The position numbers and the translations under genes were made by a program. DNA of 32,000 nt from Candidatus Thalassarchaeaceae archaeon (GTDB taxonomy: Archaea; Thermoplasmatota; Poseidoniia; Poseidoniales; Thalassarchaeaceae), in contig JBJLBP010000001.1 in the NCBI GenBank assembly GCA_045568075.1, positions 330,001-362,000 of the forward strand, written 5' to 3'. Every line of letters begins with the position of its first letter. Position 1 is the stretch's first letter. The notes beneath the pieces were generated by a model, which did no database searches, was not told where the DNA came from, and saw only the letters and a program-made list of their open reading frames with translations. Shown here one piece after another: positions 16,641 to 20,883 of the stretch.

Positions 16641-17117
16641 TCATTCTTCTTCCGTGAGCGCTTCTGTCCATTGCTTGACGTCGATTCCTTCGCGTCCAAA
16701 GTGGACGCGAGATCGTCGGTATTCGGGTAATAGGAAGCCGATGATCGACCTTTCCCCGAATGTCCATTGCCATGGGCATCGGGGAAGTCGAGAACTCCAT
16801 TCATCGAGAATAGATTTCCACTCTTCTCCTTCGAGATGAGGTGGGATTTCAATCGAGATCCAAGTGATTCTGCCAGCTGAGCCGGGTACATTCGACCAAG
16901 TTCGCAGGCTCAGTCCTCGAGCCGAGCCTTCGAGTACCTCGATACCGAGGACTCGTGTCATCCGTGAAAGTGGCATAATGATGGCGAAACGATGCACCAT
17001 GCGAGACTCTTCCAAGCGACGCATGGACCATCCGCGCGACTCTCCGACTAATCTCAGAGCGCGGATGGCATCGGTCGGTGTCACCGAGACAGGAATCTCA
17101 AGAAGACGCCCGACCAT
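16641..17117 (-). CDS. Hypothetical protein (158 aa)
   Basis: Longest ORF at this locus, co-directional with the ribosomal-protein array, with globular-looking composition. No motif recognised and no obvious SD. Confidence 0.45.
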   Translation of the reverse strand: MVGRLLEIPVSVTPTDAIRALRLVGESRGWSMRRLEESRMVHRFAIIMPLSRMTRVLGIEVLEGSARGLSLRTWSNVPGSAGRITWISIEIPPHLEGEEWKSILDEWSSRLPRCPWQWTFGERSIIGFLLPEYRRSRVHFGREGIDVKQWTEALTEEE

Positions 17118-17291: not shown

Positions 17292-17603
17292 TCAACCGAA
17301 GAGAGATCCGAGTCCTTCGAAGCCACCGGCGTCGTCTTCCTCTTCCTCTACTTCAGCTGGAGCTTCCTCAGCAGCAGGAGCGCCGGCAGAGCCGCCAGCA
17401 GAAGCTGGGGCAGCGGCGACAGGCGCAGCGACCGCAGTCGCCATTGCCTCACCGATGTCAACATCACCGAGCGAAGTGACGAGTGCCTTTACACGAGCAC
17501 CGTCAACATCCACACCAGCGGCGCTCAGAACTGAGCTCACACCGTTTTCATCGATTTCCTTCTCTGCGGAGTGCAGAAGCATTGCAGCATATACGTATTC
17601 CAT
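17292..17603 (-). CDS. rpl12: 50S ribosomal stalk protein P1 (archaeal L12)
   Basis: [17 protein letters not shown]... N-terminus, an Ala/Pro hinge and an acidic tail [32 protein letters not shown] context places the start at 17603 rather than the track's GTG 17612. Confidence 0.95.
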
Positions 17604-17621
17604 TTTTCTCACCTATTTTTT

Positions 17622-18647
17622 TCAGCCGAAGAGATCGCCTAGTCCACCGAACTCGGCTTCCTCTTCTTCCTCCTCTTCCTCCTCAGCCGGAGTTTCCTCG
17701 GCTGGGTCTGCCGCATCGGAGGTTGCGGCGGGTGCGCTGGTGGCGGCGCTAGCAGCAGCACCGAGTGCAGCTGCCAGCTCGTCATCAAGCGCAGAGGAAT
17801 CTAGCTGGCCCGCGAGGGCCAGCGCGCGCGCGTTGGCGCGCGATACGAACAGTGGAATCGTGACATCGTTGGTGATGCCAGCTTCCACAGCGACAGATGT
17901 CGCCTCTCCGCTGGCCTTGGCCAGGAGGGTCGGCATTGTCTGTGAAGAGAACCAGCGGATGTTGCAGGCGAGATTGAAGGCGCCTGATGTCGCTGTGATG
18001 ATGTCCGTGCGGAATTCTTCAGTGTCGATGTCGAGCGAGTCGGCTTCGAATAGGAAGCCGTCCTCAATCGCTCCGGTAAGGATGATACCAATCTCAATCG
18101 GATTGATTCCAAGCTTTGCGAGCATGATTCCAAGGTCAGCAGAAATCGTTTCTCCTTGCTCGACCACAGTCGTAGTCTTCTGGATAGCAACCTTGCCCTT
18201 GTCGATCTTCGCGGGAATTCCCACGGCGTTGAATTCACCGACGATTGGACCTGGTCCAAACTCGGTTGGTCCCTGCTCTACGACGATGTCGATTGGAGAT
18301 ACCTCGCCTTCCTTAGCTGCACGGCCCTGACGGGTCTTCTCCAATTCTGAGAAGAGTTGGAAGGCGTTCATTGAGTCTGTGTGAACGATGGCCGGCTGGA
18401 TTGCGCCATCAAGTAGAGTGTCGAGGTCGCCCATAGGGCGGCCAGATTGTTCCCAAGCGAGGCGCATCAGCGTCTTCTTGGCCATCGTGATACTCATGCT
18501 GTTGCGGAGGTCTTTGCGCATGCTGAGCATGTTCTTGGCTGGGACGCCGCCAATGTCGACGACTCCCAGAACTCCATCGGAGGACAGAATCGCGGCGAGT
18601 TCTCCGACGCGATCGCGCTTCCATGGAGCGACCTTAGCATCAATCAT
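17622..18647 (-). CDS. rpl10: 50S ribosomal protein uL10 (P0)
   Basis: N-terminus ...APWKRDRVGELAAIL...VVDIGGVPAKNMLSMRKDLR and C-terminal tail EEEEEEEEEAEFGGLGDLFG. The start overlaps the rpl1 stop (ATGA at 18644-18647), with GAGGTGA upstream. Confidence 0.95.
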   Translation of the reverse strand: MIDAKVAPWKRDRVGELAAILSSDGVLGVVDIGGVPAKNMLSMRKDLRNSMSITMAKKTLMRLAWEQSGRPMGDLDTLLDGAIQPAIVHTDSMNAFQLFSELEKTRQGRAAKEGEVSPIDIVVEQGPTEFGPGPIVGEFNAVGIPAKIDKGKVAIQKTTTVVEQGETISADLGIMLAKLGINPIEIGIILTGAIEDGFLFEADSLDIDTEEFRTDIITATSGAFNLACNIRWFSSQTMPTLLAKASGEATSVAVEAGITNDVTIPLFVSRANARALALAGQLDSSALDDELAAALGAAASAATSAPAATSDAADPAEETPAEEEEEEEEEAEFGGLGDLFG

Positions 18648-19288
18648 TGAATCACCTCAATCTTGATTGAGGGTCCCATCGAGGTCTTGACGTAGCAAGA
18701 GCGGATATTTCCAGTACCGCGCTCGAGCTTACCTGTGACACGAGTCCAGATTGCCATTGCGTTGTTGGTCAATTCATCGACGCTCTGCTCGCGAGAGCCG
18801 AGAGGGCTGTGGAAAGTCATCTTATCGCGCGAGCGCACGATTGCAGTATCCTTCAGACCGGCAGCAATCATTGCTGGGTCAAGGGTAGGTGGAACTGGTC
18901 GAGGCATCTTACCGCGAGGTCCGAGAACCACACCGAGGAAGCGACCGACAGTTCCCATATGTGGGATTTCAGCGAGGAAGAAATCAATGCTATTCGCAAG
19001 CTTACGAGCCTTCTGACGATTTCCACCGAGATCTTCGATAGTCGTTGGATCGATGATATCGATTCCGGCGGCGCGTGCCTTGGTAGCCATCTCGCCACCA
19101 GCAAACATTGCAATCTTCACCGGCTTACCGCGACCTGCAGGGAGACGGATCTCCTCCTGGATACGGTTTGCTGGGTTCTTCAGGTCAATGTCCTTCAAGT
19201 TAAACGAGAACTCGACGGTCTCAGTGAACTTGCGCTCAGGAGCGCTGTTCAGGGCTTCTTCAATCGCTGTTTGGATGTTTTCTCTCAT
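18644..19288 (-). CDS. rpl1: 50S ribosomal protein uL1
   Basis: ERKFTETVEFSFNLKDIDLKNPANRIQEEIRLPAGRGKPVKIAMFA... is typical uL1. GAGGTGAGGAAT precedes ATG 19288, which I prefer over the track's start at 19345. Confidence 0.9.
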   Translation of the reverse strand: MRENIQTAIEEALNSAPERKFTETVEFSFNLKDIDLKNPANRIQEEIRLPAGRGKPVKIAMFAGGEMATKARAAGIDIIDPTTIEDLGGNRQKARKLANSIDFFLAEIPHMGTVGRFLGVVLGPRGKMPRPVPPTLDPAMIAAGLKDTAIVRSRDKMTFHSPLGSREQSVDELTNNAMAIWTRVTGKLERGTGNIRSCYVKTSMGPSIKIEVIQ

Positions 19289-19341: not shown

Positions 19342-19620
19342 TCACTCAAAATGTTCGTTGAATCTCCCTTCTTCCATTGCTTGTAGAGCGGCCTTGGGCT
19401 CCATGCCCTCAACCTTGACGCGCATTGCCACACAGGTACCCATGATCTCACGCGAGCGCGCGTAAAGAGATGAACCGGTCAAGCGGTCCTTCTGCTTCTC
19501 AGCGACCTGCTTGACTTGCTCCATTGAGAGGTTCTCAGTGGAGGCATCCCAGCTGCCGTTGCACTTCTTCAGACCGAGGGTCTGTATGATCACGTGAGGA
19601 GTCTCGTTTCGCGCTGACAT
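19342..19620 (-). CDS. rpl11: 50S ribosomal protein uL11, C-terminal (rRNA-binding) domain only; the N-terminal domain is absent from this locus
   Basis: ETPHVIIQTLGLKK...NLSMEQVKQVAEKQKDRL...IMGTCVAMRVKVEG aligns by eye to the hinge plus C-terminal domain of bacterial and archaeal L11 (KTPPASFLLKKAAGIEKGS...GTAKSMGIEV). The ~65-aa N-terminal domain (GGKAxxGPPLGPALG...) is not encoded in any frame of the 86-nt spacer up to the spt5 stop. Confidence 0.8.
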   Translation of the reverse strand: MSARNETPHVIIQTLGLKKCNGSWDASTENLSMEQVKQVAEKQKDRLTGSSLYARSREIMGTCVAMRVKVEGMEPKAALQAMEEGRFNEHFE

Positions 19621-19706
19621 ACATGATACCCCCTATTGAAGCGACCCGCCGACCTACTCTCTCTATTTGAGCGTGCTGACGGGCCTCCTGATTCTCCTTT
19701 TTTTGC

Positions 19707-20606
19707 TCATTCGACGCGCTGAGTGACTCTTACTTGGTCAGCGCGCACGGTCAGAGCGACTGGAACAGCTGCATCGAAGAGCTCGACCGTGACCTCTTCT
19801 TTGGATTCTGTAACGCGGATGACGCGGGCGGATTGGCCCTTGAAAGCGCCACCGCTGATCTCGATGATACAACCTTCTTCGATGCCGGCGGTAGCCGCCT
19901 TTGGCTCGAGATAGGAAAGTGTGTTTTCGAGAGGTGACACGCCTGGAAGCACCTTACGGCAATTCTTCAGGCGGGTCGTGGTCATACCGACCATTCCGAT
20001 TAGCTTCTCGACGTGGTGCACGGCGGAGGCTTCGACGAAGATGTAGCCACGCACGTGGCCAGGGACTAGGACTCCGAAGATCTCGTCTTGGATATCCTTG
20101 AGTGACCCGGTTCCTGAGAGGCGGGCGCGAATCTCCTTTGCGACGTTCTGTTCCTGACCGATGCTAGTCTTGAGGATGTAGAGGAAAGAAGCGACGTCTC
20201 CATACATTGCGCCAATCTGAGGAATGGCATAGCGAACTGCCCCCGTCCCCTCGGACGTATCGGATTTGTAATTCTCGATATTGGCCGGGTCGACCCATTC
20301 GAAATTCTTGTAGATGGTTCGAGATGAGACCTCCTCGCTGTCAGAGATGAACAGTAGAGGGGTAACGTCGTTCAGGCGGTTGCCGAAAGCGAGACCGCGA
20401 GCAGGACCGGAGCGAACGTGCTCGAGTGACTCAGCAGGAATGCCGGTGCACTCGGTTACGCGAGCGGTTACGGCATCGATATCTTCGGGATTGCCGGCAC
20501 CATAGATACCATCCCAAGCGCCGGGGAAGTCAGCGACCTCATCGGCTCGCTGCATGATTAGGACCTTCTCGCCGTGGCGAACATAGACTACGAATGCGTC
20601 AGACAT
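19707..20606 (-). CDS. spt5: Transcription elongation factor Spt5 (NGN+KOW) with a ~145-aa N-terminal Nudix-fold-like extension
   Basis: C-terminal half: FLYILKTSIGQEQNVAKEI...GYIFVEA (NGN) and GCIIEISGGAFKGQSARVIRV (KOW). N-terminal half: FVVYVRHGEKVLIMQRADEVADFPGAWDGIYGAGNPEDIDAVTARVTECTGIP is Nudix-like. GAGGTGAGAAAAATG places the start at 20606 (MSDAFVVY...). There is no stop between the two halves. Confidence 0.8.
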   Translation of the reverse strand: MSDAFVVYVRHGEKVLIMQRADEVADFPGAWDGIYGAGNPEDIDAVTARVTECTGIPAESLEHVRSGPARGLAFGNRLNDVTPLLFISDSEEVSSRTIYKNFEWVDPANIENYKSDTSEGTGAVRYAIPQIGAMYGDVASFLYILKTSIGQEQNVAKEIRARLSGTGSLKDIQDEIFGVLVPGHVRGYIFVEASAVHHVEKLIGMVGMTTTRLKNCRKVLPGVSPLENTLSYLEPKAATAGIEEGCIIEISGGAFKGQSARVIRVTESKEEVTVELFDAAVPVALTVRADQVRVTQRVE

Positions 20607-20616
20607 TTTTCTCACC

Positions 20617-20883
20617 TCAGGAGTTCGTAAGCCATGAGAAGAAGTCAGGCAGGACATTGTCCATCAACCAGAGCATACCAAATCCGATAGCACCGAGAAT
20701 GAACATTCCGATACCACAGACGATGACAGTCTGGCGGAATTCCTGCTTGGATGGCTTGCGAGCCATCTTCAGGATACGTGCCATCGATCCAGTCTGAACG
20801 CGGCGTACGCGCTCCTCGATATCATCCTGCAGTCTCTGTGCAGTTTGCTCGATGGCCCCGATGTCTGAGTTCTCCATAGCCAT
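20617..20883 (-). CDS. secE: Protein translocase subunit SecE / Sec61-gamma
   Basis: C-terminal KMARKPSKQEFRQTVIVCGIGMFILGAIGFGMLWL (basic segment plus a single TM) and the conserved position upstream of spt5. GAGGGAGAG precedes ATG 20883. The stop TGA is embedded in the spt5 SD. Confidence 0.8.
   Translation of the reverse strand: MAMENSDIGAIEQTAQRLQDDIEERVRRVQTGSMARILKMARKPSKQEFRQTVIVCGIGMFILGAIGFGMLWLMDNVLPDFFSWLTNS

Follow-up and report, generated by a model that had tools for sequence, protein, structure and literature searches.

The uL11 gene of Poseidoniales archaea encodes the hinge and rRNA-binding domain of the protein without its N-terminal domain

The window analysed here, a stretch of 32,000 nt of DNA from a Candidatus Thalassarchaeaceae archaeon, carries on its minus strand the genes for SecE, Spt5, L11, L1, L10 and L12, in that order (Pfam). 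Its L11 gene, encoding the ribosomal protein uL11, is only 92 codons long. uL11 is a universal two-domain protein of the GTPase-associated centre of the ribosome, in which its N-terminal domain (NTD) meets elongation and release factors. The features of the locus are listed in the order of transcription.

20617-20883, minus strand: SecE (PF00584; 86-88 aa in the gene calls of other assemblies)
19707-20606, minus strand: Spt5 with NGN and KOW domains, preceded by a lineage-specific N-terminal extension of about 140 aa (Pfam; TIGR00405 matches residues 143-297)
19621-19706, minus strand: spacer of 86 nt between the Spt5 stop and the uL11 ATG (three-frame translation; NTD profile negative)
19647-19668, minus strand: near-invariant 22-nt motif AAATAGAGAGAGTAGGTCGGCG, a TATA-like box with conserved downstream bases
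19342-19620, minus strand: uL11, 92 aa from an ATG, hinge and C-terminal 23S-rRNA-binding domain only (matches to PF00298, Pyrococcus furiosus L11 and NF002232)
18644-19288, minus strand: uL1, 214 aa from its ATG, with a longer GTG-initiated ORF reaching 19345 (PF00687, E 7.5e-45; called at 214 aa elsewhere)
17622-18647, minus strand: uL10/P0, 341 aa, insertion domain present (PF00466, PF17777, PF00428)
17292-17612, minus strand: stalk protein P1/aL12 (PF00428, E 1.1e-15)
16641-17117, minus strand: conserved hypothetical protein of 158 aa (158-179 aa elsewhere), directly 3' of P1/aL12

Within the window, uL1, uL10 and P1 are of ordinary length and domain content (Pfam), and an Rfam scan of the window found no rRNA gene. 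Spt5 is called as 299 aa in other assemblies; its stop codon ends at 19707, and the uL11 ATG lies at 19620.

The first-pass annotation of this DNA had described a 92-aa rpl11 within a secE-spt5-rpl11-rpl1-rpl10-rpl12 array, beginning at the interdomain hinge, encoding the C-terminal domain (CTD) alone and leaving the NTD no coding capacity in the 86 nt upstream. This description is borne out throughout. Pfam identifies every member of the array in order. PF00298, the L11 RNA-binding domain, is the sole Pfam match of the 92-aa ORF (30.2 bits against a cut-off of 21.4, with ORF residues 8-70 on profile positions 6-69 of 69), and a Pfam scan of the ORF gave no match to PF03946, the profile of the factor- and thiopeptide-contacting NTD. 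In a phmmer search of the PDB, ORF residues 7-92 aligned with positions 73-159 of P. furiosus L11, a protein of 164 aa (4v6u_BH, E 1.6e-11). The first residue of the ORF, at the head of its N-terminal peptide (M)SARNETPHVIIQTLGLK, therefore falls about six residues ahead of the hinge threonine, which is the boundary between the two domains. All three frames of the 86-nt spacer hold stops or unrelated sequence, without an NTD.

Against the NCBIfam model of archaeal L11 (NF002232), the ORF covers profile positions 74-158 of 164 only and scores 60.6 bits, short of the full-length equivalog cut-off of 162 bits; a full-length control (P0148) scores 234.6. These proteins are named 'hypothetical protein' by NCBI and L11 by JGI, and the former label is consistent with the absent PF03946 and the sub-threshold NF002232 score. 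By its operon position, its fold and the sequence of its CTD, the 92-aa ORF is the uL11 orthologue.

An AlphaFold2 model of the 92-aa protein, built with 46 homologues, has a pLDDT of 89.2 and a pTM of 0.81. In a Foldseek search of the PDB, the model was best matched by Methanocaldococcus jannaschii L11 from the complex of the P-stalk base (chain 5d8h_C, with a TM of 0.86 and an rmsd of 1.4 A across 88 columns), followed by Haloarcula marismortui L11 (4v9f_I, TM 0.79) and then by bacterial L11 CTD fragments. The CTD is at the same time unusually diverged in sequence, with a Pfam score of 30 bits where most other CTD-only proteins that we scanned reach 49-64 bits (see below), and with a CNGSW loop where a GSG-x-P loop is usual. 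This divergence, the CNGSW loop included, may be a co-adaptation that followed the loss of the NTD.

The spacer between Spt5 and uL11 contains a conserved element. The 22-nt motif, AAATAGRGAGAGYAGGTCGGCG, begins 48 nt and ends 27 nt ahead of the uL11 ATG, is followed on its 3' side by a G-rich, Shine-Dalgarno-like run, and occurs once in the window, where no chance match is expected. It is kept across the listed loci of the Thalassarchaeaceae (MGIIb) and recurs in a relaxed form in three loci of the Poseidoniaceae (MGIIa), the TATA-like motif reading AAATAGGGAGAGCAGGTCGGCG in MGIIb and TTATATAGGGGAGTTTAGTCGGCAAG in MGIIa. An Rfam scan of the window, this motif included, matched no family. Judged by its sequence and position, the motif together with the G-rich run forms a putative promoter and leader belonging to uL11 itself; the motif could be a promoter/initiator, or else the binding site of a regulatory protein, for example an r-protein autoregulation site. 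On one Poseidoniaceae contig (L013, 4008-4884), two small ORFs encoding hydrophobic proteins of 161 and 129 aa, neither with a Pfam match, lie between Spt5 and uL11, and the promoter-like motif still stands directly 5' of uL11 despite these two inserted genes.

The exact 92-aa protein is present in 730 indexed blocks of a public assembly collection. Six contigs listed from it (57-71 kb, from six different samples) all carry Spt5 of 299 aa, the 86-nt gap, the 92-aa gene, L1, L10 and L12. A protein search returned 147 clusters at 90% identity, with Candidatus Thalassarchaeaceae or Poseidoniales named as their sources; the majority of the clusters listed have a length of exactly 92 aa, and identities reach down to 64%. 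Database variants of 96-129 aa were considered as longer forms of uL11 and rejected, being alternative upstream start calls with unrelated N-termini.

Among the contigs of GTDB species-representative genomes there were 342 matches, of which the best 80 were analysed. These 80 carry Thalassarchaeaceae/MGIIb labels or generic ones (Poseidoniales, Euryarchaeota, Methanobacteriota, Thermoplasmatota) and include the single-cell genomes AG-422-I22, AG-457-A01 and AH-287-M04 as well as long-read metagenome-assembled genomes (MAGs) with contigs of 533-698 kb. The ATG stands at the hinge in all 80 of these loci, and the gene has 92 codons in 79 of them and 91 in the remaining one. The new N-terminus, MSARNETPH, is nearly invariant. 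An upstream start, a frameshift or an in-frame extension was rejected as a source of further coding sequence, with stops in all three frames and a median of 4 open in-frame codons 5' of the ATG across the 80 species. Pairwise dN/dS has a median of 0.066 (Nei-Gojobori), with synonymous sites saturated in 2088 of 3081 pairs, which together imply that the gene has long been in its truncated form and that purifying selection on it is strong.

The truncated uL11 is thus conserved biology and not an assembly error. The first-pass annotation had favoured biology over a random assembly gap, and the recurrence of the same hinge ATG and 91-92-aa ORF in 80 of 80 best-matching Thalassarchaeaceae genomes agrees with that preference; it had also named some 200 additional NTD-coding nucleotides at this junction in sister genomes as the finding that would overturn it, and none of the 80 has any in-frame upstream coding sequence.

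At one locus (L009, protein P0113), the spacer and the first 31 uL11 codons are identical to those of the window and the remainder is markedly diverged (67% identity overall); this uL11 may be a recombinant or come from a chimeric contig.

The truncated form extends to the second clade of the order, the Poseidoniaceae according to the names of cluster members. Here the protein, 90-93 aa long and beginning MPKPWTSH..., shares 42-51% identity with the one in the window. It falls into 117 clusters (90% identity), for which the Pfam annotations recorded on the uL11 part are all PF00298 and never PF03946, and it lies in the same context of Spt5 (304 aa), L11-CTD, L1, L10 and L12. In both families the protein begins at the corresponding point of the hinge, where a T-x-H is conserved, and PF03946 occurs in none of the 264 Poseidoniales-type uL11 clusters (90% identity) that were retrieved. 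Comparison of these sequences suggests that the truncation is probably ancestral to Poseidoniales; since both families share the hinge start and the upstream promoter-like motif, one loss in the ancestor of the order is the most likely course.

CTD-only forms of uL11 were also found in other archaea.

P0227, 89 aa: an abundant AT-rich marine lineage (332 indexed blocks); overlaps the Spt5 stop by 4 nt
P0180, 162 aa: an archaeon; 8-nt overlap with the Spt5 stop
P0163, 94 aa: an archaeon; 253-nt gap to Spt5
P0179, 100 aa: an Aigarchaeota MAG; 48-nt gap to Spt5
P0187, 194 aa: Ca. Tiddalikarchaeum anstoanum (DPANN); near Spt5, with three opposite-strand ORFs intervening
P0189, 138 aa: an Aenigmarchaeota MAG; begins at the hinge, known from the protein alone
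Loci of CTD-only uL11: L014/L015, 5001-5270; L016, 5001-5489; L017, 5001-5285; L098, 4001-4303; L099, 4001-4585

Several of these proteins have long C-terminal tails rich in Lys, Glu and Ala. The CTDs of the other archaea are nearer to the canonical sequence (49-64 bits, as against 30) and bear no specific relationship to the Poseidoniales form, which argues for CTD-only uL11 having evolved independently in these lineages. A further protein, P0156 (139 aa), keeps the first 25 residues of the NTD alone, fused directly to the hinge, a remnant whose sequence looks like decay and not relocation.

One apparent addition to this set, P0133 (91 aa), was rejected as an assembly chimera: its C-terminal two-thirds are 95% identical to eukaryotic L12e, and its contig (L011, an 822-nt Tara contig with P0133 at 451-726) joins to this a Poseidoniales-like Spt5 3' end and uL11 N-terminus, the chimera having formed at a conserved stretch. 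The same caution applies to short CTD-only matches taken without their genomic context.

In the AT-rich marine lineage, L1-L10-L12 lie on the opposite strand from uL11, with AlaRS between, and uL10/P0 (L014, 8987-9847, minus strand) is short, at 286 aa, ending in ...SLKKEADKE without the FGGLGDLFG-type tail of the Poseidoniales P0.

We searched for the missing domain with a profile made from six NTDs, each taken from a full-length archaeal L11. The profile recovered control NTDs at E 1e-32 to 1e-41, half-NTDs at E 1e-13 to 1e-20 and, at 9e-11, a remnant of 25 residues. When the 32-kb window and 549 kb of Poseidoniales loci from about 90 genomes, covering some 6-20 kb around uL11 in each genome, were translated in six frames and searched, the best E value was about 1; the loci of the other CTD-only lineages likewise gave a best E of about 1.

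The N-terminal extension of Spt5 (residues 1-142; window 20181-20606, minus strand) is a conserved stretch of about 140 aa ahead of the NGN and KOW domains in both Poseidoniales families, found also in L007, L012, L013 and most of L018-L097. It has no Pfam match. A profile search of the PDB gave weak matches (E 0.036-1.2), mostly to Nudix hydrolases over the Nudix-box region, and a faint one to IPP isomerase; the Nudix-box glutamates are not kept (R-[IV]-T-E-C-T-G). To judge from these matches, the extension looks like a degenerate Nudix-like domain that is probably non-catalytic. It was also considered as a place in which the NTD might be hidden, and rejected, given the lack of a Pfam match and the near-complete restriction of its weak profile matches to Nudix hydrolases.

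From the hinge boundary alone, the first-pass annotation had left the choice between a split and a reduced uL11. The evidence now leans to reduction, with no NTD near the gene in any locus and other archaea truncated in the same way. On the observed gene structure, synteny, conservation, selection and modelled fold, we consider it quite likely that a functional, orthologous uL11 lost its NTD outright, leaving a minimal protein of the stalk base.

The alternative that fares best, and which we still regard as unlikely, is a split gene, in which the NTD would act in trans, either from an ORF of its own at another place in the genome or as part of some other ribosome-associated protein. Room for a relocated domain is left by the 6-20 kb of sequence that the search covered per genome, and the MGII CTD is so diverged that a relocated NTD might equally escape recognition. 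The published marker inventory is ambiguous on the point: of the CheckM markers, Rinke et al. report 11 that none of the 270 Poseidoniales MAGs contains (TIGR00537, TIGR02237, TIGR00422, PF01287.15, TIGR03677, PF09249.6, PF13685.1, TIGR00162, PF02649.9, PF03684.8 and PF01849.13; PMC6461757), and PF03946 is not among them. Its omission is neutral, as it is not established that PF03946 belonged to the marker set. However, no NTD signal appeared in the window and the 549 kb, including uL1, uL10, P1, Spt5 and the small ORFs; several unrelated lineages are equally truncated without a neighbouring NTD gene; and the 25 residues left in P0156 have the look of decay. What keeps the uL11 NTD on the ribosome is chiefly the covalent linker that joins it to the CTD, so a free NTD would be expected to have little anchorage. 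If PF01287 and PF01849 are, as we take them to be, eIF-5A and NAC, the translation apparatus of Poseidoniales may be atypical beyond uL11.

Less probable than a split gene is the replacement of the NTD by a non-homologous, lineage-specific protein, for which the 158-aa protein downstream of the stalk genes would be the candidate. It lies 3' of L12 in the same orientation and position in 62 loci from both families, has 44-47% identity between the families and an invariant LPRCPWxWTFxERSxIGYLLP motif, and has no sequence relative in Pfam, NCBIfam or the PDB. Its candidacy as a partner of the stalk operon comes from position only, across a 174-nt gap to L12 that does not imply co-transcription; a single-sequence structure prediction was unusable (pLDDT 38), and the other lineages in which uL11 is CTD-only do not have the protein.

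We give a shade less weight again to the possibility that a full-length rpl11 lies elsewhere in the genome and that the 92-aa gene is an extra, specialized copy. Our view of each genome was of the sequence around the operon, which allows for such a copy; yet the 92-aa gene fills the canonical slot between Spt5 and L1 in every Poseidoniales locus, the strength of purifying selection on it, at a place in the operon that is universal, fits a sole copy, and none of the 264 retrieved clusters includes the NTD profile. It is hardly credible that a deletion in the assembly, a frameshift or gene decay has produced an artefact or a pseudogene here: the architecture is the same in 80 species, whether their genomes are short-read MAGs, long-read MAGs or single-cell assemblies, the ATG and ORF length are kept with no relaxation of selection (dN/dS 0.066), the fold model is complete and confident, and a promoter-like motif and Shine-Dalgarno-like run are conserved upstream.

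Under the preferred reading, the outright loss of the NTD, the domain would have been lost once in the ancestor of Poseidoniales and the gene held thereafter under purifying selection, its 92-aa product being the hinge plus a complete archaeal CTD. In uL11, rRNA is bound by the CTD and translation factors are contacted by the NTD, which works alongside the nearby insertion domain of uL10 in factor binding (PMC9122527). The 92-aa protein is predicted still to bind and clamp helices H43/H44 of 23S rRNA and to steady the P-stalk base beside uL10, a binding that we infer because the fold is retained and the GTC-x-[SA]-M helix conserved. Retained rRNA clamping and stalk support would explain the strong constraint on the CTD, and yeast ribosomes deficient in uL11 carry much less bound stalk protein (PMC9122527).

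With, as we infer, no NTD supplied in trans, the MGII ribosome would be without the surface that uL11 offers to translational GTPases, and factor docking would be left to the tails of the P stalk, the sarcin-ricin loop and the uL10 insertion domain (PF17777, present here). In yeast, changes of glycine to alanine or proline in the GPLG motif of the NTD reduce poly-Phe synthesis to 9-32% (PMC9122527). The site of thiopeptide binding is the cleft between the uL11 NTD and H43/H44 (PMC5960728). Half of this pocket would be gone from the MGII ribosome, and insensitivity to thiostrepton-type compounds is therefore predicted; by analogy with the known site, we consider it probable.

More broadly, it is likely that the ribosomes of all Poseidoniales have a GTPase-associated centre without the uL11 NTD and that the same state arose independently in several DPANN and TACK lineages. 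If this is true, a factor-docking and thiopeptide-binding domain held to be universal is dispensable in nature and outside the laboratory, and its loss would be compensated or exploited, be it through intrinsic resistance to the thiostrepton class, a changed regulation of translational GTPases or a replacement protein particular to the lineage. Marine Group II (Poseidoniales) archaea rank with the most abundant archaea in surface waters of the ocean, and an order-wide natural loss in a dominant free-living group would surprise ribosome specialists. The NTD-less uL11 would be a natural experiment on what the NTD contributes, and its dispensability is directly testable. For genomics, marker sets that include PF03946 or full-length L11 models would systematically under-score the completeness of genomes from these lineages. 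In a search of the full-text literature, most subscription journals lying outside it, no paper turned up that describes a uL11 without its NTD in any archaea, MGII and DPANN included, and we provisionally regard the natural form as unreported.

Among known systems, canonical archaeal uL11 (M. jannaschii 5COL and 5D8H; P. furiosus 4V6U; H. marismortui 1S72/4V9F) occupies the same operon slot as the window protein and shares with it the CTD fold (TM 0.86 and 0.79), down to the additional C-terminal helix of archaea, and the G-T-C-x-[SA]-M helix motif. The window protein differs in being without residues 1 to about 70, the whole NTD with its conserved Gly/Pro-rich GPPLGP motif, and the two are about 31% identical over the CTD. 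The CTD-only proteins of other archaea resemble the Poseidoniales form in starting at the hinge, in matching PF00298 alone and in lying beside or near Spt5; unlike it, they have CTDs much nearer to the canonical sequence and, in several cases, the long C-terminal tails.

The nearest analogue in form is the bacterial laboratory fragment L11-C76 (1HC8, 1ACI, 1FOW, 1Y39), likewise a stand-alone L11 CTD, studied alone or with rRNA, to whose type of chain the model fits with an rmsd of 1.6-1.8 A (Foldseek). L11-C76, however, is an engineered bacterial truncation, whereas the form described here is the natural gene of a whole archaeal order. The nearest in physiology are uL11-deficient cells (yeast rpl12 knock-outs and bacterial rplK mutants), in which translation is possible without the uL11 NTD; in yeast, the deficiency lowers the number of stalk proteins bound and raises both misincorporation and readthrough (PMC9122527). 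Those mutants are impaired laboratory strains that have lost the whole protein, whereas MGII archaea have kept the CTD and are ecologically dominant.
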